A stretch of 64,000 nt of DNA from a virus (Duplodnaviria > Caudoviricetes): positions 1 to 64,000 of IMG/VR virus record IMGVR_UViG_3300034071_001431; one strand, written 5' to 3'. Numbering within the stretch: position 1 is the stretch's first letter; every line of letters begins with the position of its first letter. A program made the position numbers and the translations under genes. The notes under the pieces are model-generated. The model saw only the letters and a program-made list of their open reading frames with translations, had not been told where the DNA came from and searched no databases. This document shows positions 52,807 through 64,000 of the stretch, piece by piece.

Positions 52807-53277
52807 TTATGCCGCTAATACGTGATGTAACCGGTCGGCTGCGTAACTTGCAGCCCATGCGTTTGGTTTAACCATTGGAATAACATTGCAGGTACCGCGA
52901 ATGTAACCAATTGCTTGTGTTACAACACAGCTTGAACCGTGTATTTCATTCGGGTTAATATCAAGATGGACAGCAACATCTCGCCCTTCTAATACTTCGT
53001 GTAGTTTTAAGTACAGTTCAGAAATTTTGTATACTTCGTTCATTAAACGCATACTTGGGCGGTTGCGTTTTTGATCGTAATCTACTTCAGTTGAGCTTTC
53101 ACCAAAGATTTTACAACCGTGTTTACCATCAATGTGAACTACAATCGCCATTGTGTATTCAGCATGCCATACACCATTCTTACGAAAGCGTGTACTATCG
53201 CCACCAATGTAGATTTTAGTTTCATCACTTTGTGCATTGATAAAATCACGTACTTCATCGAAATTCAGTTTTTTCAT
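52807..53277 (-). CDS. RNase H-like YkuK/DUF458 protein
   Basis: IYIGGDS, RLMNEV, VHLDIN, KP.AWAASYAAD. Confidence 0.85.
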   Translation of the reverse strand: MKKLNFDEVRDFINAQSDETKIYIGGDSTRFRKNGVWHAEYTMAIVVHIDGKHGCKIFGESSTEVDYDQKRNRPSMRLMNEVYKISELYLKLHEVLEGRDVAVHLDINPNEIHGSSCVVTQAIGYIRGTCNVIPMVKPNAWAASYAADRLHHVLAA

Positions 53278-53287
53278 ATCCTACCCT

Positions 53288-54052
53288 TTATTCTTTTGTT
53301 ATTTTAGCTAATTTAAAAAATTCTAATAATTTTAGTACACCCCAACCAAGATCAACTTCCCACCATTTCATTGATAATTTAGGAGATGAAGGTCTAGCAT
53401 GATGATTTGCATGTAACTCTTCCCCTCCTTGAAAAATTGCCAATGGCCACATATTAAGAGCGCGGCAACGAGGGTCATACCCTTCATTAACATATCCTAT
53501 GCCGCGATGGGTTGCATACAGCGATAACACCGTACCTATAAATGCGTGATATAATATAAAAATTGCAGGAATAATGCCCGCAATACCAAACAATACAAAT
53601 ATAATACTCAGTGAAATTCTATTTCCAAGATATGGCCAACGTCGACATATATTAATATCTACCCAATTAGTGGGATCGGTTACGTCATCTGCATATTTTT
53701 TGATATCAGCAGGGCTAGTAAAAGTAGACGGGCCACCATAATCGGTTAATTGTTTTATTGAATAAAAGTACGGACTGTGTGGGTCATCTTTTGTATCGGC
53801 ATATTGGTGATGTTTTCTGTGTCTAGTTACACTACGTTTCATCCAGCCCGGTGATATCATTTGCCATGTCGTTAACCATAATATAAGACTAGTTAATTGA
53901 ACGATAACCGGATGTAGCACTGCCATTTGATGGGCTTGTACTCTATGCATGTATATTGAGTAAGTTAATCCTTGCAATTGAATTATAATAAATGCCAATA
54001 CAACCGCTCCGTGCCAGCCCGATGTGCCAACTACTCCGAAAATATATGTCAT
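53288..54052 (-). CDS. membrane fatty-acid desaturase (DesA-like)
   Basis: YMHRVQAH, HRKHH, DPHSP, GEELHANHH, WWEVDLG. Confidence 0.9.
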   Translation of the reverse strand: MTYIFGVVGTSGWHGAVVLAFIIIQLQGLTYSIYMHRVQAHQMAVLHPVIVQLTSLILWLTTWQMISPGWMKRSVTRHRKHHQYADTKDDPHSPYFYSIKQLTDYGGPSTFTSPADIKKYADDVTDPTNWVDINICRRWPYLGNRISLSIIFVLFGIAGIIPAIFILYHAFIGTVLSLYATHRGIGYVNEGYDPRCRALNMWPLAIFQGGEELHANHHARPSSPKLSMKWWEVDLGWGVLKLLEFFKLAKITKE

Positions 54053-54084
54053 ATATTACCCTTTATTGTATTTACTATTAGTAT

Positions 54085-54160
54085 TGGTGCAACCTGTAGG
54101 AATCGAACCTACTTCAACGGTTCTTCAAACCGCCGCTATGACCACATCAGCTAAAGTTGC
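54085..54160 (-). tRNA. tRNA-Phe(GAA)
   Basis: cloverleaf, GCGGT-TTGAAGA-ACCGT, encoded CCA. Confidence 0.88.
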
Positions 54161-54161
54161 T

Positions 54162-54353
54162 TTAATCTATTACTAGGTTTTGTTCGAGTACTTGCTTGAC
54201 TTTGTGTGCCTCTGCAATAAGCTCAGCAATCTTTTCATCAATGTTAGCATACGTTACGTCACGTACATCAATGCTAACAGTAAACTTAGTATCTAAACAA
54301 AGTTCCTTGTTAGCATTTTTGGATATTTTACCCGAAGGTGATAACTTAATCAT
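54162..54353 (-). CDS. hypothetical protein
   Basis: AAGGAG SD. Confidence 0.6.
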   Translation of the reverse strand: MIKLSPSGKISKNANKELCLDTKFTVSIDVRDVTYANIDEKIAELIAEAHKVKQVLEQNLVID

Positions 54354-54364
54354 ATACTACTCCT

Positions 54365-54853
54365 TTACATATTGCTTTTAGTTAAGTGATGTCTATAATC
54401 ATCACGCCAATTGTGTTGCTCGTCTGGGTTATGTGTTAACCCTAACAGCTTCATTAGTTTGTGTTTAACACGTAGGTTAGGACTACGAAACTTTTCAGTA
54501 TCTCTAAAGCCCATCATAACACCAATCTCTACTACTGCACCGCTACGACATAAACCTGCATGACAGTGAACAACAATGTTTATATGCTCAGCTAACGCAC
54601 GTTGTAGCAACTGTAAAATTGCTTCTGCTTGCGCATCGCTAATCAATGGCTCTTCACCGTACTCTGCAACATCGGTATCTTCTGCATCTAAAAACTTAAA
54701 CTGATGCACTTCTTTAAATGCATGCTTTGGTGTTGGAAAAAGAGTAATAGGGTCAACGATTTGAATAAGCATAGAGTTAGCGCCAGCATCAAAGTGCTCG
54801 CCTACTTGTATGTCTTTCATACTAACGTTTTCAATCCATGGTTTAATCATCAT
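54365..54853 (-). CDS. Cys-dependent protein tyrosine/dual-specificity phosphatase
   Basis: VHCHAGLCRS (HCx5R). Confidence 0.85.
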   Translation of the reverse strand: MMIKPWIENVSMKDIQVGEHFDAGANSMLIQIVDPITLFPTPKHAFKEVHQFKFLDAEDTDVAEYGEEPLISDAQAEAILQLLQRALAEHINIVVHCHAGLCRSGAVVEIGVMMGFRDTEKFRSPNLRVKHKLMKLLGLTHNPDEQHNWRDDYRHHLTKSNM

Positions 54854-55220
54854 ATTCATCCTTATAATACTCGGGGTGTTTAGCTCTTACAATAAGATGT
54901 GTGCCCATTGCACTTCCACTGCTAAACTGTGCTCCTACCTTAAACTTTCTTCCGTTAAGTGTAAATGGTATTAATACACTATCGCCATTCCACCAACTAC
55001 GCTGTATACTAATATATCCATCTGCACCTAACTGCTCGCGCAACTTAGCAAACTCTGGGTGGTCAGCCGAACTCGTAGTCGAACATTCGCCCTTACCTTG
55101 TATAATTAAAATAAGTTCTTCTGCTGTGGGTACACGACCATTGCGTGTATACGTGTTCCACTCATCACGAATAGTTACACTTGTTAAGTATTCTGGGTCG
55201 ATTGTAAAGTCCACTACCAT
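54843..55220 (-). CDS. hypothetical protein
   Basis: DHPEF..LR..L...GYI...WWNGD. Confidence 0.65.
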   Translation of the reverse strand: MVVDFTIDPEYLTSVTIRDEWNTYTRNGRVPTAEELILIIQGKGECSTTSSADHPEFAKLREQLGADGYISIQRSWWNGDSVLIPFTLNGRKFKVGAQFSSGSAMGTHLIVRAKHPEYYKDEYDD

Positions 55221-55474
55221 ACCTCACTTTTTAATATCTGTAGCATTACTTCTTGCTGTTCTTCTTCGGTTAGCTTTGCTAACTCAGGGCGATCTCTATG
55301 CTTATACCAAATCATATTACCATCAACAGTTAGTGTAACTATAGTATGTGCCTTGTAGACAAGTTGTCCGGGTAGTTGTGTACCGCGATATACCACATAC
55401 TGCCCGACGGTTCTACTACTGAACGCACGGTTCATATCTGCACCAAGTGGCCCCATGTCGCAATAGTATGTCAT
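55214..55474 (-). CDS. hypothetical protein
   Basis: operon ORF, ATGA coupling. Confidence 0.6.
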   Translation of the reverse strand: MTYYCDMGPLGADMNRAFSSRTVGQYVVYRGTQLPGQLVYKAHTIVTLTVDGNMIWYKHRDRPELAKLTEEEQQEVMLQILKSEVW

Positions 55475-55653
55475 CGTTTCTTTCTAATGTTTCTATTGTA
55501 CACTTCACCGTTTGGAAGTTTACCATCTATTACGCCAGCAACTCCCATCTTTCCTACAATGATAAGTTCTTCTGGCTTAATAGTTTGTAGTGCTTCTTTA
55601 TCTTTAATCCATTGCGGTTTTAATTTAGAAGTCATATACTTTTGGTTTTCCAT
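55471..55653 (-). CDS. hypothetical protein
   Basis: GVAGVIDGKLPNGEVY. Confidence 0.6.
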   Translation of the reverse strand: MENQKYMTSKLKPQWIKDKEALQTIKPEELIIVGKMGVAGVIDGKLPNGEVYNRNIRKKR

Positions 55654-55987
55654 CTGTGTGTAAATAATGCCACAACACTTTCTTATCGAAGTCTGCTCGT
55701 ATAGTCGGGTCACTGCACCATTTTTTAACTATGTCAGCATTACCATAACTATTGTGTGGTGCATGATGTACAATCCATTTGGCAATATTTGCCATTGATG
55801 GACTGTTTGCATGATCTGCTTTAAATGCCGCAGTAAACAGATCACCCTCGAGCATAGCAGTTAAAAAACTACCCGGCTCCATACCATGTACAAAGTATCG
55901 TACCAATGCTTCGTGGGCAGGTTTCGGAATACTATACGTTGTCTGCCAGTCATTGTATTCTAACCAATCTAATTCACTGTGTGCCAT
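55625..55987 (-). CDS. hypothetical protein
   Basis: YFVHGMEPGSFLTA..AD. Confidence 0.65.
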   Translation of the reverse strand: MAHSELDWLEYNDWQTTYSIPKPAHEALVRYFVHGMEPGSFLTAMLEGDLFTAAFKADHANSPSMANIAKWIVHHAPHNSYGNADIVKKWCSDPTIRADFDKKVLWHYLHTDGKPKVYDF

Positions 55988-55988
55988 G

Positions 55989-56387
55989 TTACTGCTCTCT
56001 TTTAAAAGAAACTTCCTCTGAATAGTAACCGTTGCTTGAACCATACCATCTGATGTCAACGTACCCTTTGCGAGTTGCTAATTTATAAAATGTCCATGTG
56101 TGTGACCCGTATTCATCTTCTTCTACTTCACCTGCAGATTTAATCAAGTCAAATAAGTTTTGTGCTTCTTCTGCCATTAAGATTTCTTCGCCAACTAAGT
56201 CAGCTAAGTCACCAACGATAGATTCGATTGATACTGATTCACAACAAGATTGTTCGTGATACAAAGTGTATACTTCGCCGTCTGTAGTCACAAACTTCAT
56301 TTCATCGTTGTATTCGTTGACTACTACGCTTGTCAACACTTTACCTTTTAATTCGTTAAATTCTACTTCTTTATAGTTGTAAGACAT
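55989..56387 (-). CDS. hypothetical protein
   Basis: GGAGG SD; HEQSCCE, WTFY, SNGYYSE; promoter at 56414-56442. Confidence 0.7.
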   Translation of the reverse strand: MSYNYKEVEFNELKGKVLTSVVVNEYNDEMKFVTTDGEVYTLYHEQSCCESVSIESIVGDLADLVGEEILMAEEAQNLFDLIKSAGEVEEDEYGSHTWTFYKLATRKGYVDIRWYGSSNGYYSEEVSFKREQ

Positions 56388-56450
56388 AATAGCCTCCTTT
56401 TTTAATTAAGTGTATTATACATTCATATTGTTGTTTTGTCAATCGAAATT

Positions 56451-56524
56451 TGGAGCGGCTAGCGAGAATCGAACTCGCGATTAAACTTTGGCAAAGTTTT
56501 AGGTTTCCATTACATCATAGCCGC
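56451..56524 (-). tRNA. tRNA-Gly(GCC)
   Basis: cloverleaf with CCA. Confidence 0.9.
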
Positions 56525-56533
56525 ATTTTAATC

Positions 56534-56597
56534 TTACTGCTCAGTAACATTTGAACTGATTTAGCCGGTTTTGACGGCAAATGTTACTGAGCAGTAA
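56534..56597. repeat. 20-bp perfect inverted repeat
   Basis: ttactgctcagtaacatttg ... caaatgttactgagcagtaa. Confidence 0.9.
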
Positions 56598-56606
56598 CAT
56601 TTTATT

Positions 56607-56684
56607 TGGTGCGCCCGGAGGAAATCGAATCCCCAACCTCATGCTTCGTAGGCATGTGCTCTAATCCAATTGAGCTACGGTCGC
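56607..56684 (-). tRNA. tRNA-Arg(ACG)
   Basis: CATGC-CTACGAA-GCATG. Confidence 0.9.
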
Positions 56685-56763
56685 ATTAAAACTACTATGC
56701 TAGTATTTTAGAAGTATTATAAGGATAGTTGCCTAAAATACTACTATACTAGCTTTTATGATT

Positions 56764-56833
56764 TGGAGCCCCCGAACGGTATCGAACCGCTTCTTTCGGC
56801 TTCGAAGGCCAAAGTCCGTCCATCGGCGGGGGC
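56764..56833 (-). tRNA. tRNA-Arg(TCG), truncated D-arm
   Basis: 70 nt; TTGGC-CTTCGAA-GCCGA; normal T-arm and CCA. Confidence 0.75.
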
Positions 56834-56839
56834 ATTGTT

Positions 56840-56916
56840 TGGTAGAGATGGTAGGATTTGAACCTACGGTAGCTTGCGTATGAAGCAAGTGCATTAGGCC
56901 ACTATGCTACATCTCT
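56840..56916 (-). tRNA. tRNA(CAT): Ile2 or elongator Met
   Basis: CTTGC-TTCATAC-GCAAG. Confidence 0.85.
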
Positions 56917-56926
56917 ATATCGAAAG

Positions 56927-57003
56927 TGGAGTATGTGACAGGAGTCGAACCTGCATAATACGGGGTTGCAATCCGCAGCTTATCCATTCAGCTACACACA
57001 TAC
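56927..57003 (-). tRNA. tRNA-Cys(GCA)
   Basis: anticodon loop TTGCAAC, U73 discriminator. Confidence 0.85.
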
Positions 57004-57009
57004 ATTGTT

Positions 57010-57085
57010 TGGCACCCCCTGATGGACTCGAACCACCGAATGACAGGATCAAAACCTGTTGCCTTACCAGCTTGGCGAAGAGGGT
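57010..57085 (-). tRNA. tRNA-Gln(TTG)
   Basis: ACAGG-TTTTGAT-CCTGT. Confidence 0.9.
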
Positions 57086-57098
57086 ATAAGTGATATTT

Positions 57099-57233
57099 TT
57101 AGAATGAGTTGGGAGTTATCCTCCCCGGATGTCCGTAATCCTAAGTTCGAGGTTGCAACTCCTTAGGGGTCACTAGTAAATTCTAGCTATAGCAGGGTGC
57201 GCATTGTTAAGTGGCGAGCCCGGACAATTCTTT
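57099..57233 (-). ncRNA. candidate structured RNA
   Basis: nested stems agaat/attct, tgtccg/cggaca, cctaag/cttagg, gggag/ctccc. Confidence 0.45.
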
Positions 57234-57236
57234 GTT

Positions 57237-57311
57237 TGGTCCGGCGTGAGGGAATCGAACCCCCAACTAGGGAGTAGAAATCCCCTGTTATGTCCATTTA
57301 ACTAACACCGG
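57237..57311 (-). tRNA. tRNA-Arg(TCT)
   Basis: GGGGA-TTTCTAC-TCCCT. Confidence 0.9.
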
Positions 57312-57317
57312 AATTAC

Positions 57318-57407
57318 TGGCGGAGAGTCAGGGAGTCGAACCCTGTCAACCGTATAAAGGGTTGTACACCTTAGCAGGGTGGTGCCTTACCGTCCGGCCC
57401 ACTCTCC
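57318..57407 (-). tRNA. tRNA-Ser(GCT)
   Basis: long variable arm, G73. Confidence 0.9.
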
Positions 57408-57417
57408 AAATGCTATA

Positions 57418-57828
57418 TTACATTGTTACTTTAGGTTTTGCTTGTTTTTTATTATTTTTAAGTATGCCATATACAGCACCGCATAACCATTGCCCTTGTG
57501 CATCATACATCTTGTCACCGCTAATGTCCCAAAAGTATGTATTGGATTCACCGCTTGGATAAGCATTAATTAATGTGCCACGTTGCTTTAATAAGCATTC
57601 TTCAACATCAATAGCAGATACAAATACAAGGTCGGTGTTTACATATTGCATATTGACAAATATACCTGTACTTTTTTTAGTACCTTTTTTGTATTCTTTA
57701 ACCTTTACTGATTCAACATCAGCAATTAAACGTACTCCATCACCCGAATCAGTTACCACTGCCCAATTTTCAGCGTGTGCTGTGATTGTAAACAAAAGTG
57801 CTAACGATAATACTACAGTGCGTAACAT
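57418..57828 (-). CDS. secreted/periplasmic protein
   Basis: signal peptide ending AHA, two Cys. Confidence 0.7.
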   Translation of the reverse strand: MLRTVVLSLALLFTITAHAENWAVVTDSGDGVRLIADVESVKVKEYKKGTKKSTGIFVNMQYVNTDLVFVSAIDVEECLLKQRGTLINAYPSGESNTYFWDISGDKMYDAQGQWLCGAVYGILKNNKKQAKPKVTM

Positions 57829-57846
57829 ATTATTCCTTAATAAAAT

Positions 57847-57936
57847 TGGCGGAAGCGGTGAGATTCGAACTCACGGAGCATTTCTGCTCGGCAGTTTTCA
57901 AGACTGCAGCCATAAACCAGACTCGACCACACTTCC
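57847..57936 (-). tRNA. tRNA-Ser(TGA)
   Basis: long variable arm. Confidence 0.92.
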
Positions 57937-57959
57937 ATTTAAAATTTATTATAGCAAGT

Positions 57960-58070
57960 CACCGCCTTATTCGTCAACCGAAGTTGTGATCTTTTCCTTG
58001 CCTGACAGCTTTTTCAACTAGGGTTTTTCAATACTACCTGGATGCTGTTTACCCCAAACACGTAGCGGTA
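57960..58070 (-). ncRNA. candidate structured RNA
   Basis: accgc/gcggt closing stem, caac-UUCG-gttg hairpin, cagc/gctg. Confidence 0.35.
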
Positions 58071-58081
58071 CAAAGATTCTT

Positions 58082-58156
58082 TGGTGCATCGAGAAGGTAA
58101 CGATCCTTCCGCCTATCGCTTATCAAGCGAGTGCTCTACCTCTGAGCTACCGATGC
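58082..58156 (-). tRNA. tRNA-Ile(GAT)
   Basis: anticodon loop TTGATAA; atypical T-loop ATCGTTA. Confidence 0.88.
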
Positions 58157-58166
58157 ATATAAAAGG

Positions 58167-58305
58167 TTTTTGAGCGCCTAGCTATCTGTACCGGACAGCC
58201 TTGCTAGATTGTCTCGAATCGGAGAGATCAACATATTTCGCGCAATTCCATAATCCATTGATGCGGACGCTACTTAGGACTCAATCCAACCGTCTATCTC
58301 AAAAC
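58167..58305 (-). ncRNA. candidate structured RNA (tRNA-Asn trailer)
   Basis: ttttgag/ctcaaaa closing stem, ctagc/gctag and ctgt/acag hairpin. Confidence 0.4.
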
Positions 58306-58380
58306 TGGCTCCGAAGGGTGGGATCGAACCACCGACCAAAAGATTAACAGTCTTCTGCGCTACCGCTACGCTACTTCGGA
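58306..58380 (-). tRNA. tRNA-Asn(GTT)
   Basis: cloverleaf, G73. Confidence 0.92.
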
Positions 58381-58387
58381 ATTGACT

Positions 58388-58464
58388 TGGTGGAAGATAA
58401 AGGGATCGAACCTTTGACCTTGGCCTTGTAAGGGCCCTGCTCGTACCAGCTGAGCTAATCTTCC
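58388..58464 (-). tRNA. tRNA-Val(TAC)
   Basis: cloverleaf. Confidence 0.92.
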
Positions 58465-58471
58465 TATAATA

Positions 58472-58547
58472 TGGTGGAGGTGACAAGGATCGAACTTGCT
58501 ACATCCTGCTTGCAAAGCAGGCGCTCTCCCAAATGAGCTACACCCCC
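58472..58547 (-). tRNA. tRNA-Ala(TGC)
   Basis: cloverleaf, G3:U70. Confidence 0.93.
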
Positions 58548-58624
58548 GTATTTCTTTTCTATAATATATAATGTTCATCTACTTTGTTAGTAGTGGACTG
58601 TACCGCGCAGTCACTTTCTATAAT

Positions 58625-58836
58625 GTTACACGATAGTAATAAGTGTTTTGCTACTTCGCACTACCAAAGCCCAAAACTGAGTAGTTACCCTGTCCAACTG
58701 TTTCCTTATGGGTGCAACAGTAAATAACCTACGCATTTCTCAAGTCGCTCACGTAATAAGCCTTGCAGTAGAGCGTATGCACTGTGCTAGTATGGTCATT
58801 AGCAATATACCCACTTTGATAAAGTAAAAGTGTAAC
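58625..58836 (-). ncRNA. candidate ~210-nt structured RNA
   Basis: gttacac/gtgtaac closing stem, several internal hairpins, no ORF. Confidence 0.45.
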
Positions 58837-58844
58837 CTGGTGTT

Positions 58845-58918
58845 TGGAGCGGGATATCAGAATCGAACTGATGACAGAAGTTTGGAAAACTCCAGTTTTG
58901 CCATTAAACTAATCCCGC
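58845..58918 (-). tRNA. tRNA-Gly(TCC)
   Basis: cloverleaf. Confidence 0.92.
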
Positions 58919-58922
58919 ATGT

Positions 58923-59007
58923 TGGTGCGAATGGTCGGACTTGAACCGACATGCCCTGCGGCGAGGGATTTTAAGTCCCTTGTGTATACCAATTTCACCA
59001 CACTCGC
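58923..59007 (-). tRNA. tRNA-Leu(TAA)
   Basis: AGGGA-CTTAAAA-TCCCT, variable arm. Confidence 0.92.
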
Positions 59008-59015
59008 TTTACTAC

Positions 59016-59100
59016 TGGTGCGGCTGGTCAGACTCGAACTGACACGTCTTTCGACACGAGCTTCTAAGACTCGCATGGCTACCAATTACATCACAACCGC
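59016..59100 (-). tRNA. tRNA-Leu(TAG)
   Basis: anticodon loop CTTAGAA, variable arm. Confidence 0.9.
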
Positions 59101-59538
59101 TTTTTTCTTTCTGCCACCCTTACGATTAAGAGCAATTTTTCTTTTGTGCTCTTCAGTTAGGGTCTTACCTTTATTTGCTTTGCCGCCAGCAGATTTATTA
59201 CCTTTAGCGTTTAATCTACAAGCTTCTTCGTAACCATATTTGGCAACTGTTCTGTCCCAAATTGAATTGCCAGGGCCTTGATCTAATCTATTTTCTTGTG
59301 CTGTACCCCAATATAAATGATTAGGATTACTACACTTTTCGTTATTACAAGCATGACAGATATGTATCTTGTGCCCGCTCGGAATAGTTGTGTTTAGTAT
59401 ATGAGCCATTAAACCTTTACAATAACTAGACAATCCACCTTTTATAGGTCCGCCTCGTTCTATACAGGGTTCTGTTAAAACTAAGTGCTGCTGTCTTGCT
59501 TCTTTAGGCTGTGTAATGTATTCTTCTATTAATAACAT
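59086..59538 (-). mobile_element. free-standing HNH (His-Cys) homing endonuclease with NUMOD3
   Basis: HICHACNNEKCSNPNHLYWGT..EN; KGKTLTEEHKRKI. Confidence 0.8.
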
Positions 59539-59590
59539 TTCGTATCTCCTTATGTTTATTTAGCTAAACACAGTGAAAAACGTTAATTAA

Positions 59591-59617
59591 TGTGTATACC
59601 AATTCCACCAAAGAGGC
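59591..59617 (-). pseudogene. 5' fragment of a tRNA-Leu
   Basis: GCCTCTTTGGTGGAATTGGTATACACA matches the Leu(TAA) D-arm; no 3' half seen. Confidence 0.7.
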
Positions 59618-59630
59618 ATTATTGTATTTT

Positions 59631-59706
<76 letters not shown>

Positions 59707-59715
59707 GATAAGATT

Positions 59716-59883
59716 TTATTTAACTAAGCGTGATTCCAATATAGCAATCCTGTTACGGAGTTTTGCTTTATCTTTACCTTTGCTAGCTTTATCCAACAAT
59801 GTATTTAGTTGGGTTAAATTCAAGGGACCTAATTTAGGTTTGCCTGTGCGTGTTTTCATTGAATCTGCTTTTTTAATTGCCAT
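59716..59883 (-). CDS. small basic protein
   Basis: AGGGG SD; KTRTGKPKLGPLN. Confidence 0.65.
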   Translation of the reverse strand: MAIKKADSMKTRTGKPKLGPLNLTQLNTLLDKASKGKDKAKLRNRIAILESRLVK

Positions 59884-59901
59884 GTTATTCCCCTGTGTAT
59901 T

Positions 59902-59976
59902 TGGTTGCGGAGGACGGATTCGAACCGCCGATCTAAAGGTTATGAGCCTTCCGGGTTGCCACTTCCCCACCCCGCG
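59902..59976 (-). tRNA. initiator-type tRNA-fMet(CAT)
   Basis: C1:A72 mismatch, CTCATAA loop. Confidence 0.88.
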
Positions 59977-60152
59977 ATAAAAGTTCTGCGGCCAGTACAG
60001 GCCTGTTATCATGTGCAGAATCATGGCTAATTTCAAAGATGGAGTTTCACCATAGGCATTAACTACCCTTCGGACGGTTTGCTATTCTCTCCTAACCTCG
60101 AATACATAATGTAATAGCTTTCTTCCATGTACTTATTTGTTACTATCTATAC

Positions 60153-60181
60153 AGTGTAGCAGTTTTGATATGTGTTGTCAA
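60153..60181 (-). promoter_or_regulatory. internal sigma70 promoter
   Basis: TTGACA-17-TACACT. Confidence 0.6.
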
Positions 60182-60202
60182 CTACTACTACTTAAATTAA
60201 AT

Positions 60203-60382
60203 GCTCTGACGGGTGTGCGCGGTAGACTCCAGCATCACTTAATGGACTACATGCCTTTCGCCGCTGGCCACACCCCGCTCTCGGATTGCCACCGCTAGTT
60301 TGGTAAGACTAGAACCACCCTTGGCTATCACACCACTTCTCATCGTGCGGGTCACAATATCCATTGATTAGATGGAACGTCC
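60203..60382 (-). ncRNA. candidate GC-rich structured RNA abutting the tRNA-Trp CCA
   Basis: hairpins tccat/atgga, ctagt/actag, gggtgtg/cacaccc enclosing ccagc/gctgg and gcgg/ccgc. Confidence 0.55.
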
Positions 60383-60456
60383 TGGCTCCGGTGGAGGGAA
60401 TCGAACCCCCACTAGTGGTTTTGGAGACCACCGCACTGCCATTATACTACACCGGA
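60383..60456 (-). tRNA. tRNA-Trp(CCA)
   Basis: GTGGT-CTCCAAA-ACCAC. Confidence 0.92.
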
Positions 60457-60470
60457 ATATACTTAAAACT

Positions 60471-60548
60471 TGGCGACACTTACGGAATTCGAATCCGTGA
60501 TCTCTACCGTGACAGGGTAGCGCATTAAGCCAGCTATGCTAAAGTGCC
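60471..60548 (-). tRNA. tRNA-Asp(GTC)
   Basis: CTACC-CTGTCAC-GGTAG. Confidence 0.92.
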
Positions 60549-60606
60549 AAAGAACTTCCGAGCCGACTGCAAGCAGTATTCTACGGACGGAAGCCATATT
60601 AAAAGT

Positions 60607-60681
60607 TGGGTTGACTAACCGGGTTCGAACCGGTGATGAAGGAATCACAATCCTTAGTATTACCACTATACTATAGTCAAC
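60607..60681 (-). tRNA. tRNA-His(GTG)
   Basis: G-1:C73, loop TTGTGAT. Confidence 0.92.
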
Positions 60682-60767
60682 ATTGAAACCATACAGAAAC
60701 ACACTGTGGGCGTTGCTATGCAGCATACTAAATCTAGTCTAGTTGCGAACAATGTGTTTTCTTATGG

Positions 60768-60843
60768 TGGTAGGAGAGATGGGGTACGATCCCACAACCT
60801 CGAAATTAAAAGTTTCTTGCTCTGCCAGTTGAGCTACTCTCCC
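60768..60843 (-). tRNA. tRNA-Lys(TTT)
   Basis: loop CTTTTAA; atypical T-loop ATCGTAC; followed by a second CCA. Confidence 0.88.
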
Positions 60844-60864
60844 ATATATGTATAAAGATGTTTA

Positions 60865-60925
60865 ACGTGCCTATCCTTAATCATACATGGGATTAAAGAC
60901 GACACTAAAGTTTACCTCGCTTCAT
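60865..60925 (-). other. micro-ORF MKRGKL(TAG) fused to a hairpin
   Basis: TAGGAG SD, ATG 60925, stop 60905-60907; stem GTGTC/GGCAC and tctttaatc/gattaagga. Confidence 0.5.
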
Positions 60926-60955
60926 GTGTTGCTCCTATTAAATTTACTACAAAAC

Positions 60956-61041
60956 TGGTGGGCAAGGATGGAATCGAACCAACTCAACCAGGGGTAACAG
61001 ATTTACAGTCTGCTGCGCCTCTCCAACTGCGCCGCTTGCCC
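60956..61041 (-). tRNA. tRNA-Tyr(GTA)
   Basis: loop CTGTAAA, variable arm. Confidence 0.9.
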
Positions 61042-61049
61042 ATTGTAAT

Positions 61050-61134
61050 ACCATATTGAAGCATACTATAATTCTAAGTTTAACGGCCAGAGTTAACTTG
61101 GCATTAGAAACGGTACAATATGCTTCAATATGGT
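61050..61134. repeat. 16-bp inverted repeat including the tRNA-Glu ACCA end
   Basis: accatattgaagcata ... tatgcttcaatatggt. Confidence 0.85.
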
Positions 61135-61205
61135 ATCGCGTAGCGGAATCGAACCGCTCCTAGTTGGATGAAAACCAACTGTTCTAACCGATAAACTAAC
61201 GCGAT
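61131..61205 (-). tRNA. tRNA-Glu(TTC)
   Basis: GTTGG-TTTTCAT-CCAAC. Confidence 0.88.
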
Positions 61206-61221
61206 ATTGTAAAACTATAAA

Positions 61222-61234
61222 TTGTTAAAGAGCG
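61222..61234 (-). promoter_or_regulatory. boxA antitermination element
   Basis: CGCTCTTTAACAA vs rrn boxA TGCTCTTTAACA, between the promoter and the first tRNA. Confidence 0.75.
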
Positions 61235-61256
61235 TATTACTTAACTTCAAGTAGCT

Positions 61257-61284
61257 ATTATACACTCTTTAATTTATTTGTCAA
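61257..61284 (-). promoter_or_regulatory. sigma70 promoter of the tRNA operon
   Basis: TTGACA-16-TATAAT. Confidence 0.8.
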
Positions 61285-61376
61285 TCTTTATTTTTGTCTT
61301 GCGTAAGATGGAAAGCCGAAGCCTCCAACATCAGTATCATGTTCGTTCATGATCGTTTCTCCTTTAGCATTTTATC

Positions 61377-61675
61377 CGCCTGCAATTAAGTATAAATCAG
61401 CGGTTATAACTTTAATTCCTGTAAGTACTACAGGGCGGGATAGTTATGTTTCCCTACTGCGCTCTAGATTGGGGGCTTCCTTGGATACTACGCCAGTACG
61501 CTATCCTCGTTCTCGTAGGGATTAAACCCCTTCCTGCCACACCTCAGTCCACAGGACTATACTTGCCTGTGTTCAAGTTAAATTGTTCCGCAAGCTCCAT
61601 TGTACGCTTCCCTATCCTAAGCCGGACACAGGCGTCTTGCGCTTCTAATGAGGTCGCAACCCTCTCTAGGCGGTT
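61377..61675 (-). ncRNA. candidate ~300-nt structured RNA (tRNA-Pro trailer)
   Basis: ccgcct/aggcgg closing stem, gcctgtgt/acacaggc, ggata/tatcc, cctgt/acagg; GC-rich; no minus-strand ORF in track. Confidence 0.55.
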
Positions 61676-61678
61676 TTC

Positions 61679-61756
61679 TGGTCTCTCGTGTAGGATTCGA
61701 ACCTACGTTCTTCTTGCTCCCAAAGCAAGTGCCATACCAGACTAGGCGAACGAGAG
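61679..61756 (-). tRNA. tRNA-Pro(TGG)
   Basis: CTTGC-TTTGGGA-GCAAG. Confidence 0.92.
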
Positions 61757-61966
61757 TTAAACGCACTCATATGAATGCGTATAATAAAGTACACTAATTG
61801 CTCTCTTAAGACATAATCCACATTGCGTGGGACCTAGTTGCCGATTAATGTACTTTATTATAACAAGTATTTTCTGTTCACAAAAGAACATGCCATCCAC
61901 TTGTCCGCCCATTTGCCTTTTTAACGTGTGTGCCGCGATCTCGTTTCGCATAACACGTACTGCTTA

Positions 61967-62095
61967 CTACTTAGAAAGTTTCTTTAAAAGATTAACATTT
62001 TCTGTTAATAGTTGGGTTACCCTTTCTAATTTTTGTTCTAATACCACTATCCTTTGTTCTGGAGTCGGCTTTTGAACAGTTTCTTTTTTATCCAT
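61967..62095 (-). CDS. 42-aa coiled-coil protein
   Basis: AAGGAG SD; MDKKETVQKPTPEQRIVVLEQKLERV. Confidence 0.6.
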   Translation of the reverse strand: MDKKETVQKPTPEQRIVVLEQKLERVTQLLTENVNLLKKLSK

Positions 62096-62113
62096 CTCCG
62101 GCTCCTTAAAAGC

Positions 62114-62147
62114 AAAAAACCCTAGTCTTTCGAGCTAGGGTTTAAGT
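62114..62147 (-). terminator. attenuator terminator
   Basis: AAACCCUAG-CUCGAAAGA-CUAGGGUUUUUU; 5' arm is complementary to the end of the leader ORF. Confidence 0.85.
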
Positions 62148-62177
62148 AAAAATTCATTTCTGATATAAAAATAAACG

Positions 62178-62303
62178 TTAACTTAAACCCTCATTATGCG
62201 GTGTGCGATCATTACTGCCTAATGTCTCAATCGCTGACCAATAAGACATCGTGGCAAGTATCTGCACTGGTGATTTCTTAAATTGATTACACGTTTTAAA
62301 CAT
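62178..62303 (-). CDS. putative attenuator leader peptide (41 aa, all 20 amino acids)
   Basis: MFKTCNQFKKSPVQILATMSYWSAIETLGSNDRTPHNEGLS; AAGGA SD; between promoter and terminator. Confidence 0.7.
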   Translation of the reverse strand: MFKTCNQFKKSPVQILATMSYWSAIETLGSNDRTPHNEGLS

Positions 62304-62344
62304 TTTGCTTTCGCTTCCTTTAATTAATTTCTTATTAAGCTGCT

Positions 62345-62373
62345 ATTATATATTCTATTTATACTCTTGTCAA
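62345..62373 (-). promoter_or_regulatory. consensus sigma70 promoter with embedded TATAAATA late promoter
   Basis: TTGACA-agagTATAAATAgaata-TATAAT. Confidence 0.88.
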
Positions 62374-62397
62374 GTACTTTATCTATTTATTTATCAT

Positions 62398-63132
62398 TTA
62401 TTTTTGAACCGGTGTTATATCCGGTGATTTTTTGAATCTTTGTCTAGTTTTACCGTGCATTGTATAAACACTATTGTCCGGTACATCATCTAATACCAAA
62501 CTACCAATGTATACTATAGCATTATTACCTACAGTGAGCAAGTCTTTTTTTCTACTCGGTATTAATGTACTTCTAACTCCAATGCGAACATTGTTGCCAA
62601 CTTTAACATGTGCTAAAATACTTGCGGCGCCGATAATACTATTGCGCCCTACAGTTGTATCAACTAATCTTGTGTCCCAATCAATTACACTGTAATCACC
62701 TATTACTACATCTGATCCGATACTAGCATTAGACAAAATCATAATACCTTTGCCCAATGTTAAATTACGTTTACTATGAAACCAATGCACATCTTTTGAT
62801 ATTAAGTTTACTACTGTTACACCTGCCTTGTCGAGTAACTCTAACCGTTGACGTCTAAGTGTATCTGCATCAAATTCTTGCCCTAGTGCTTGTTTACCAT
62901 CCCACCAGTTTGCCGGAAAGAAATTGTATTTTGCCCATTTATTGTTAGGTACAAGTAATTCTTCTTCTGACCCTATTACAGGAATACCGCAAATCTCAGT
63001 GGTATTACCCCAATAGTGCTTATCTAGTATTCCGATAATTTTATATCCGCTATGTTTAGCAGTTTCTATTATATCGGCTAGGTTTTGTCTACTACCAACC
63101 AATACTAATTTCTTTTTAAACAAGTTAAACAT
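62398..63132 (-). CDS. sugar O/N-acetyltransferase (NeuD/PglD-like, hexapeptide repeats)
   Basis: GYKIIGILD..GIPVIG domain plus LbetaH repeats (IGSDVVIGDYSVI, VGNNVRIG). Confidence 0.8.
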   Translation of the reverse strand: MFNLFKKKLVLVGSRQNLADIIETAKHSGYKIIGILDKHYWGNTTEICGIPVIGSEEELLVPNNKWAKYNFFPANWWDGKQALGQEFDADTLRRQRLELLDKAGVTVVNLISKDVHWFHSKRNLTLGKGIMILSNASIGSDVVIGDYSVIDWDTRLVDTTVGRNSIIGAASILAHVKVGNNVRIGVRSTLIPSRKKDLLTVGNNAIVYIGSLVLDDVPDNSVYTMHGKTRQRFKKSPDITPVQK

Positions 63133-63319
63133 CGTTGATTACATCAATTCCTGCTGTATCACCTAATTCACTTACTGCTTCTACTGCGGCTTTTTTCTTT
63201 GGTGCGCCCCAGAAGTTAGTTGTTGCTGTTTCGCTTTGTACACCGCGGGCAATTTGTTTGATTTCCCCACCTGTAGCTAAGAACTCTTGCATTGCTTGTT
63301 GGTATTCTTCGTTTGTCAT
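63125..63319 (-). CDS. small hypothetical protein
   Basis: EFLATGGEIKQI. Confidence 0.65.
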   Translation of the reverse strand: MTNEEYQQAMQEFLATGGEIKQIARGVQSETATTNFWGAPKKKAAVEAVSELGDTAGIDVINDV

Positions 63320-63351
63320 ATTGTTCCTTAAGTTTTAATTAGTATAGCAAA

Positions 63352-64000
63352 TTAATTGTCAGCCGTCAACTGATTTTTTATTATATAGTTGTAGAGATAA
63401 TCAGCCCAACGTTCGTGCCCTTCTTCTCGCGGATGCCAACGTTTAAATAACAACGGGTTTACATTCATTAAGTCTCGACGTTCGTTAATCATGTTATACC
63501 ATGTCTCACCAACTTCTGTTTTAAACTTATTAGTTATTAATTCGTTGCGTTCTAAAAATTTTGCAATTGACCAAACTCCCGAACCCTGCATATAACAAGG
63601 ATTTAACGGAATATCAAATAATAAATCAATCCAATGTTTAGGAGTCTGCGTTGGGTGCGATATTATAGAATTAGTAAACGCAGGGCCAGCAATACACCTA
63701 ACTGTAGGATTTTGTTTCAACACCTGATCAATTCTTTGGTAGTGCCAAGTTTCGACATCTTGCAATACATCCATTATTGATTGATTAGCAGTGTCGGCAA
63801 ATGATGTTTTATACTGAGTGATCACTCGAGTTTCGTATTCACCGTCAAGTTCCCTACCATGATCACTAAATCCCAACACTGCTATAATCTTTTTAGTCTG
63901 CGGAACTAGTTGCGGCACTAACTTTTCAAATTCACCAATGACCCAATCCCAACTGCCCCCAGGTAAGGCTATCTGTACCCAATTGGCTCCTAACTTTTGT
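63352..64000 (-). CDS. SGNH-like protein (5' truncated by window)
   Basis: frame open to the edge (LGANWVQIALPGGS); C-terminal WHPREEGHERWADYL. Confidence 0.6.
   Translation of the reverse strand, partial: QKLGANWVQIALPGGSWDWVIGEFEKLVPQLVPQTKKIIAVLGFSDHGRELDGEYETRVITQYKTSFADTANQSIMDVLQDVETWHYQRIDQVLKQNPTVRCIAGPAFTNSIISHPTQTPKHWIDLLFDIPLNPCYMQGSGVWSIAKFLERNELITNKFKTEVGETWYNMINERRDLMNVNPLLFKRWHPREEGHERWADYLYNYIIKNQLTADN

Follow-up and report, generated by a model that had tools for sequence, protein, structure and literature searches.

Leader-peptide attenuators control amino-acid operons such as trp, his, leu and pheA, and multivalent versions precede thr and ilvGMEDA. Here we describe a leader of related wiring in the genome of an uncultured freshwater phage (Duplodnaviria; Caudoviricetes) from the IMG/VR record IMGVR_UViG_3300034071_001431. 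The DNA that was analysed, called the window below, is the first 64 kb (64,000 nucleotides) of this 114-kb record, whose CheckV completeness is 33%. On the minus strand of the window, a sigma-70-type promoter precedes a 41-codon open reading frame (ORF), referred to here as the leader ORF, which is followed by an intrinsic terminator and then by a tRNA array. Drawing on sequence comparison and RNA folding, we favour on balance the view that this element is a ribosome-mediated attenuator, in which a pan-amino-acid leader tunes transcription of the tRNA array to decoding capacity.

The locus shares with trp- and his-type attenuators a promoter-proximal short ORF, a terminator ahead of the regulated genes and an antiterminator that uses bases of the terminator 5' arm. 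As in those systems, the position of the ribosome would choose between the two helices, here as predicted by modelling. It differs in that it is phage-encoded and in that the regulated genes are tRNAs and other RNAs rather than biosynthetic enzymes. It also has no runs of regulatory codons, each amino acid being used one to five times, and no clear 1:2 anti-antiterminator was found in the leader; an untranslated leader would therefore read through rather than terminate. Because it lacks clustered regulatory codons and has tRNA genes as its targets, the phage leader is a variant that keeps the attenuator wiring and stands apart from the trp/his group. In place of regulatory codons, this leader has completeness: no amino acid is missing (20 of 20), and 23 of the 25 decoder classes, as defined by the tRNA set of the phage itself, are represented.

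Leader ORFs that report general translation trouble, and in which stalling raises downstream expression, are described for attenuators that sense translation inhibitors, namely bmrB-bmrCD (PMC4191407), the toiL upstream ORF (PMC12121999) and the msrD leader (PMC10314930). According to the available text of these reports, they differ from the phage locus in responding to ribosome-bound drugs and in controlling resistance or toxin genes, in the case of toiL through translation and Rho; none has a pan-amino-acid leader or tRNA gene targets. An accessory tRNA array that rises when translation is impaired is found in Anabaena sp. PCC 7120, whose trn operon is induced under translational stress (PMC8421152; PMC10272220). 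Unlike the phage array, it is bacterial, and the available portions of these papers ascribe its control to direct repeats at the promoter together with a repressor; the terms 'attenuat', 'leader' and 'terminator' have 0 occurrences in the main text of PMC8421152. Phage tRNAs have in turn been described as a counter to tRNA-targeting defences (PMC10264068; PMC11464382; PMC11555353). The accessible parts of these papers supply a reason for a phage to sense tRNA loss and to answer it with its own tRNAs, but they treat phage tRNA roles and anticodon loops rather than transcriptional regulation, and the accessible text of PMC10264068 makes no mention of attenuat, leader, terminator or promoter. We found no published account of attenuation of phage tRNA genes in the literature.

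The leader in related phages and its proposed RNA switch

Seven protein clusters of 41–49 amino acids (aa) in a large protein collection match the leader peptide. Leader homologues were located at 26 viral-contig loci and 21 metagenome loci, that is, at 47 loci besides the window, some of which are one contig under two names. Including the window, the set comprises 48 loci, whose ORFs have 31 distinct sequences and encode 27 distinct peptides. The sequence extends at least 700 nt past the ORF in 37 loci, referred to below as informative; every one of them carries a same-strand tRNA downstream, 182–997 nt after the stop codon, and in 30 of the 37 the first tRNA is tRNA-Pro. The leader promoter matches the consensus at 11–12 of 12 positions in each of the 24 loci scored, all of which have the TTGACA box, and the terminator is present in 46/46 loci that are not truncated there. 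In none of 24 loci did a sigma-70-type scan detect a promoter of at least 10/12 within the 340 nt that separate the terminator from the first tRNA; in one relative, L016, the next consensus promoter comes only after four tightly packed tRNAs. Because no such promoter intervenes, the first tRNAs appear to depend on read-through of the terminator, unless promoters outside the scan's model exist.

The last 11 nt of the leader ORF before its stop codon, AGGGUUUAAGU (62191-62181), are perfectly complementary to ACUUAAACCCU (62147-62137). The 55-nt hairpin that they close has a predicted free energy of -20.0 kcal/mol (z = -5.8), and 0 of 200 shuffled sequences fold as well. Its 3' arm has CCCU in common with the terminator, for which 4/200 shuffles are as good as the native helix. 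The terminator was missed by a simple scan, which permits loops of 3–8 nt, because as a strict 6-bp stem it has a loop of 9 nt. Among 21 distinct 3' regions, 95.7% of cells are paired in the antiterminator register, compared with 25–65% in slid registers, and two antiterminator pairs covary, namely 36/80 (UA to AU) and 38/78 (GC/GU/AU), with 12 cells involved. The terminator is paired in 100% of cells; its pairs 88/106 and 90/104 covary, and its loops differ among relatives. Three 3'-end designs recreate the overlap between antiterminator and terminator with different sequence.

The initial annotation, made from the letters of the window, had described the promoter, the ORF, the 11-nt complementarity overlapping the terminator 5' arm and the terminator itself, together with internal promoters at 61284 and 60181. 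All of its coordinates and sequence statements hold on the minus strand, and the two internal promoters are present with scores of 12/12 and 10/12. It had also proposed as checks the presence of homologous leaders upstream of tRNA arrays in related phages and covariation of the antiterminator/terminator pairing. The first is found at all 37 informative loci, and the second in two double-change pairs in each helix.

We modelled the ribosome as 30 unpaired nucleotides, a mask reaching from -15 to +14 around the A site. With no ribosome on the window RNA, the predicted probability of the terminator, P(terminator), was 0.17 and that of the antiterminator 0.83; a ribosome at codon 10 or 25 gave a P(terminator) of 0.06–0.15. 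Across all A-site codons from 1 to 34 the predicted value ranged from 0.06 to 0.48, and it reached 1.00 from codon 35 to the stop. Among 26 relatives, 25 had a modelled P(terminator) of 0.85 or more once a ribosome was placed at the stop. At equilibrium and with no ribosome, the antiterminator was predicted to be favoured in only 12 of these 26. Six nascent transcripts, cut before the terminator 3' arm, included three relatives that favour the terminator at equilibrium, and in 6/6 the CCC was predicted to be already paired in the antiterminator.

In the mechanism that we infer, host RNA polymerase would initiate at the consensus promoter and a ribosome would load onto the 41-codon ORF, with the two kinetically coupled. 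A ribosome keeping pace to the last ~7 codons or to the stop would cover the antiterminator 5' arm, leaving CCCUAG free to pair with CUAGGG, and transcription would terminate at U6, ~60 nt past the stop. A ribosome lagging in the first ~34 codons, whether through shortage or cleavage of any tRNA or through a general slowing of translation, or a ribosome that never loads, would allow the -20 kcal/mol antiterminator to form first and to sequester CCCU. The polymerase would then pass the terminator and transcribe a 42-aa ORF, a structured RNA and, starting with tRNA-Pro, the array; the accumulating phage tRNAs would speed decoding and so close a negative feedback loop. A general decoding sensor of this kind, as originally proposed for the locus, finds support in the comparative evidence from the relatives and in the ribosome-mask folding, where the modelled P(terminator) rises from 0.17 to 1.00.

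The same terminator could instead be a constitutive partial stop, a fixed damper that lets a constant share of the transcripts started at a very strong promoter reach the tRNAs without any sensing of translation. We judge this improbable. It would fit the modest terminator hairpin (-10.2 kcal/mol, U6) and the equilibrium folding, which gives the terminator regardless of the ribosome in 14/26 relatives, and it would fit, weakly, the RNA-library contigs that bridge the terminator. Small shares (0.05–0.18) of sampled words were found in 11 runs of RNA libraries, four of which were examined as contigs. The terminator of a relative is flanked on both sides by one 2,033-letter contig (X2) and by one 502-letter contig (X1), with 95 other letters between; the stretch 62151-62208, uncovered in the RNA-library contigs, reflects sequence divergence. 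For a damper, an ORF would be superfluous, yet indels and the three 3'-end designs have left intact its frame, its start and the position of its stop relative to the 5' arm. Moreover, the antiterminator covaries, and the composition of the leader, described below, is far from random and maintained by compensation between columns.

A T-box riboswitch, which would sense uncharged tRNA directly, was also considered and rejected, as an Rfam scan of 53000-64000 (E up to 1) returned nothing at 61760-62345, neither the T-box covariance model nor any other; its matches comprised 25 tRNAs and 6 sub-threshold plastid-family matches, the latter on the plus strand over tRNA genes.

Composition and evolution of the leader ORF

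All 20 amino acids occur in the leader peptide; C, V, Y, W, D, R and H are each present once, and Ser, the most frequent residue, is present five times. Split codon boxes are represented by ATA+ATT, CTT+TTA and TCN+AGT, and the only decoder classes missing from its codons are AGR and GGR. For comparison, windows of 41 residues were taken from the ORFs of at least 120 aa in the same genome, and 116 of 30,214 (0.38%) contained all 20 amino acids. At least 23 decoder classes were reached by 0.245% of 41-codon windows of this genome, and all 20 amino acids by 2 of its 334 mechanical ORFs of 35–55 aa. A single all-20 ORF noticed post hoc is unusual, not decisive; judged by the homologues, it is retention in relatives that lifts the property above chance.

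Among the 27 distinct peptides, 23 contain all 20 amino acids and the remaining four lack only Cys. The rare items are supplied by differing alignment columns, five for Cys, two for His, three for AGR, four for GGR and four for ATA. The 31 distinct ORFs cover 22–25 of the 25 decoder classes (mean 23.84), and six reach 25/25; in 43-codon windows of the phage's own genes, at least 24 classes occur in 0.03% and 25 classes in 0 of 29,978. After within-column shuffling of codons, the mean number of ORFs with all 20 amino acids was 17.05, against 27 of 31 observed, and the mean number with at least 24 classes was 11.68, against 21 observed; 0 of 3000 shuffles attained the observed values. When the invariant columns were fixed and the rest redrawn from genome codon usage, the probability of all 20 amino acids was 3.6–7.8% per sequence. 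In this alignment, the pangram appears to be kept by compensation between columns, an effect whose direction and size are clear despite the kinship of the sequences. The initial annotation had singled out the 41-codon all-20 ORF, with its singletons and its sampling of split boxes, and had proposed conservation of completeness despite sequence divergence as a test. Its description of the ORF is correct, such 41-residue windows prove rare (0.38%), and completeness does persist, in 23/27 peptides, with Cys and His coming from differing positions and with no shuffle reaching the observed values.

A comparable arrangement occurs in LR756504.1, a public but unannotated 636-kb record of an uncultured huge phage that is unrelated to that of the window. 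In blastn with the leader region of a relative, this record matched in the terminator part only, with 83.6% identity over ~60 nt. Five tRNA-holding stretches of the record (loci L059–L063) give six blocks; two more tRNA places lie near 281 kb and near 461 kb, and several tRNAs stand singly. ARAGORN also calls tRNA-like genes with a two-base 'anticodon' (tt) in this record (L060 1604-1679 and L062 1466-1541, in reverse-complement coordinates), and sequences similar to them recur near other blocks and give look-alike spurious ORFs. Each of the six tRNA blocks is preceded by a small ORF with a hairpin and, 48–54 nt past its stop, a T-run. In the first block, a 29-codon ORF with a run composed solely of Ile, Leu, Ser and Cys is followed by a hairpin, a terminator and a Leu-Leu-Ser-Cys-Ser tRNA block. 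The six leaders are enriched in Leu/Ser/Cys, Thr/Asn/Arg/Ile/Met, Glu/Ala/Ile/Val/Gly, Asp/Tyr/Gln, Lys and His/Phe, respectively, which are the amino acids of their own blocks, and in the 6-by-6 enrichment table the top value falls on the cognate block in 6/6 rows.

These loci and the window have in common a small ORF with a hairpin across its end, a terminator ~50 nt past the stop, directly 5' of tRNAs, and a leader composition that mirrors the tRNAs behind it. Unlike the window, LR756504.1 has blocks sorted by amino acid, and its leaders are rich in those residues, often in runs, whereas the window has one mixed all-20 array behind one leader that uses each amino acid once or a few times. 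The 26 tRNAs in the window's genome cover all 20 amino acids, as does the leader, and the all-20 leader would be explained because the array behind it is mixed and covers all 20. By this comparison, the leaders of LR756504.1 make the sensing interpretation much more likely. The leader may then be a selected pangram, the shortest practical ORF that samples nearly every tRNA species encoded by the phage, so that one switch would integrate the whole decoding state and raise replacement tRNAs upon any tRNA depletion or defence cleavage. Together with the codon-matched leaders of the LR756504.1 type, it would then represent a general, undescribed feedback regulation of large-phage tRNA genes. We give this broader proposal an even chance.

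Indels within the ORF fall into six classes, all multiples of 3, whereas the flanks in the untranslated regions (UTRs) carry 1-, 2- and 4-nt indels. The N-terminal codons 3–17 vary mostly by nonsynonymous change. Because indels keep to multiples of 3 and N-terminal changes are mostly nonsynonymous, the amino-acid identity of the N-terminal part is, by this comparison, of little importance and the open frame is what matters. Codons 18–38 hardly vary, and synonymous changes are about as frequent there as replacement changes; since synonymous sites are conserved as much as replacement sites, the constraint on this core is, on the alignment, one that acts on nucleotides. The leader ORF looks translated, with a peptide sequence that is only partly constrained.

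This pattern bears on the possibility that the locus is an ordinary small-protein gene with its own promoter and terminator. The single-helix peptide would then act in trans, the 3' hairpin would merely stabilise the end, the tRNAs would come from leaky read-through or from promoters invisible to the scan, and the 20-aa content would be a by-product. We consider this unlikely, although several findings are compatible with it. Of the 41 residues, 20 are invariant in the first eight sequences aligned, and for eight aligned peptides AlphaFold predicted one helix, at residues 12–30, with a pLDDT of 78–83 for this block. The terminator is favoured at equilibrium in 14/26 relatives, and trans-acting leader peptides and attenuator RNAs have been published, as the available text on peTrpL/rnTrpL describes. 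However, conservation of the core is as strong at synonymous as at replacement sites, and variation in the N-terminal half consists mostly of replacements, a pattern unlike purifying selection on a protein. The mean pLDDT of the AlphaFold prediction is 67 and its pTM 0.32, and the helix decides nothing among the competing readings; the peptide has 0 PHROGs matches and 0 Pfam matches. A small-protein gene would also leave unexplained the position at the head of tRNA arrays (37/37), the constant sharing of the terminator 5' arm with an upstream hairpin, the codon-matched leaders of LR756504.1 and the 22–25 of 25 decoder classes that the leader ORFs cover.

A phmmer search against 1.84 billion representatives returned, beyond the leader's own cluster, five long proteins that were rejected as repeat artefacts. 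Four are ankyrin-repeat proteins and one has HEAT-repeat matches, the identity being 29–32% summed over 3–7 stretches, and BLASTP of the leader peptide against one of the five gave no alignment.

The invariant core also raises the question of whether the main product is the terminated leader transcript of ~225 nt, a structured small RNA whose core hairpin is functional and whose ORF is secondary or only controls the fate of the RNA. The near-invariant nucleotides of the core hairpin at 62255-62217, its folding energy (-13.7 kcal/mol, with 0/200 shuffles as good) and the folding z of the 246-nt leader region (-3.84) are in line with such a product. As the core is almost invariant, it offers no covariation to prove structure; no Rfam family matches, no target is known for it, none having been looked for, and the frame-preserving indels and the pangram codon set would be needless for a pure RNA. 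We regard this explanation as very unlikely. Under the attenuator reading, the core hairpin may serve as a pause or synchronisation hairpin.

Several findings weigh against the attenuator reading. The nucleotide conservation of the core is left unexplained by it. Runs or clusters of regulatory codons are absent from the leader ORF, so that its sensitivity to any one tRNA is doubtful and may be low. The spacing of 12–13 nt between AAGGAA and the ATG is long for ribosome binding; a GNRA mini-hairpin in this spacer may effectively shorten it, and a hairpin-shortened ribosome-binding spacer has a precedent in phage T4. In the 14 relatives that favour the terminator at equilibrium, mostly of the commonest 3'-end design, the modelled switch would depend solely on co-transcriptional order. 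The 48–49-aa design places the 5' arm ~20 nt ahead of the stop, and the modelled P(terminator) at the stop drops to 0.51 once. The rest of the array has its own 12/12 promoter at 61284, independent of the switch, and because of it the switch is predicted to have exclusive control in the window over only the 42-aa ORF, the structured RNA, tRNA-Pro and the stretch to tRNA-Glu. Two records with Cys-less leaders carry tRNA-Cys, and the same two are without tRNA-Phe and tRNA-Val, though their leaders contain F and V. The RNA-library contigs across the terminator continue beyond the promoter on its upstream side; DNA may be present in such libraries, and these contigs decide nothing. Finally, the relatives share ancestry, so the counts over the 48 loci are not counts of independent events and the statistics derived from them are not true probabilities.

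A strict matching of rosters, by which a Cys-less leader would go with the absence of tRNA-Cys, was accordingly rejected, having failed in 2/2 informative records. A third record with a Cys-less leader is an 11.9-kb fragment, too short to judge its roster, and the fourth is L052. The records behind L023 and L025 (loci L055 and L056) have arrays of 24–26 tRNAs without tRNA-Phe and tRNA-Val in the sequence examined; both tRNAs are carried by the window's genome and by the record behind L012.

Genes and RNAs around the leader

The features of the locus are collected in Table 1. Following tRNA-Pro, 24 further tRNAs, all on the same strand, lie within the window, and the second internal promoter, at 60181, scores 10/12. 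RNAalifold pairs the ribosome-binding region 62315-62320 (GG...GCGA) with the Asp-Arg-Thr-Pro codons at 62199-62212 (UCGC...CC); this predicted pairing, which includes a single covarying pair, could mask the start region.

Table 1 Positions of the leader elements and of the features behind the terminator.
Feature	Position in the window	Strand	Evidence or remark
Sigma-70-type promoter	TTGACA 62373-62368, 17-nt spacer, TATAAT 62350-62345	-	12/12 consensus matches
AU-rich 5' UTR	62304-62338	-	Read from sequence; predicted extent
AAGGAA in 5' UTR	62320-62315	-	Conserved in family
Mini-hairpin GCGAAAGC between AAGGAA and ATG	62314-62307	-	Conserved in family
Leader ORF	62178-62303 (ATG at 62303, TAA 62180-62178)	-	41 codons + TAA
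Hairpin within ORF, codons 17-29	62217-62255	-	-13.7 kcal/mol; consensus helix; near-invariant nucleotides
Antiterminator hairpin	62137-62191; arms 62191-62181 (5') and 62147-62137 (3')	-	-20.0 kcal/mol
Intrinsic terminator (CCCUAG, bulge, UC-GAAA-GA, CUAGGG, U6)	62114-62140	-	-10.2 kcal/mol
42-aa ORF, AAGGAG 6 nt before its ATG	61967-62095	-	First read-through product (predicted)
Structured RNA immediately 5' of tRNA-Pro	61760-61910	-	Covariation
tRNA-Pro (UGG), first tRNA past terminator	61679-61756	-	tRNA calls
Internal promoter TTGACA-16-TATAAT ahead of tRNA-Glu	61257-61284	-	12/12

The 42-aa ORF is kept in some relatives (for example L009 and L023–L025), and other relatives have a GNRA-capped hairpin module in its place. 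It belongs to no Pfam family, and its only PHROG match is weak (E = 0.0076). The conserved structured RNA that follows has 30 predicted pairs, 11 of which show compensatory double changes among 12 sequences. Its long closing helix is accompanied by a 3' hairpin and by an inserted domain that varies, and nothing in Rfam matches it. Identification as a reduced, RNase P-like RNA was considered and rejected, as no model matched. In several relatives, the interval from the structured RNA to tRNA-Pro holds a tRNA-like element, which has a T-arm and an acceptor-like stem of 7 bp (L016 3406-3490; L001 5378-5460). ARAGORN calls it an 83-nt tRNA-Met(CAT) in L001 and leaves it uncalled in L016; the element is absent from the window.

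Upstream of the leader, most relatives carry tRNA-Met and tRNA-Arg(TCT) at a distance of ~330–350 nt (L001, L009, L010 and L020–L025 inspected). In the closest relative, L001, a gene for a 244-aa hexapeptide-repeat transferase sits between this tRNA pair and the leader. The transferase gene also lies 5' of the leader in the window (62398-63132, minus strand), where no tRNA is found upstream within the window. An acetyltransferase gene was rejected as part of the element, as the four loci linked to it (L002–L005) are without tRNAs and without a leader. In L016, two tandem 12/12 promoters lie 72 nt apart at 2857-2957, the second being the leader promoter.

Searches of cultured phages and of bacterial genomes turned up no near relative. 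With blastn, the region 61600-62700 matched two of 50,697 phage records, and only in tRNA-Pro. In the cultured-phage collection, tblastn of the neighbouring 244-aa hexapeptide transferase gave no match, and tblastn of the leader peptide gave one match at chance level (E = 9). For the ribonucleotide reductase, identity to Xanthomonas phages reaches 59% at most. Among 55 pattern matches in bacterial genome contigs, 0 were relatives of the leader.

Implications for phage tRNA genes

To our knowledge, the regulation of phage tRNA genes is essentially unknown. Large phage tRNA arrays are being reinterpreted, in the available parts of recent papers, as a counter to host tRNA-cutting enzymes (PMC10264068; PMC11464382; PMC11555353). 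If the attenuator reading is true, an all-amino-acid leader that gates such an array would equip phages with an internal meter of translation capacity, coupled to negative feedback. The logic of trp and his would thereby be extended from one amino acid acting on its enzymes to all decoding acting on tRNAs. The leader promoter and terminator are of ordinary bacterial type, and the leader would be a compact natural sensor of translation stress that is usable in synthetic biology. We suggest that, in phage genomes from metagenomes, annotation should treat small ORFs preceding tRNA blocks as regulatory leaders.

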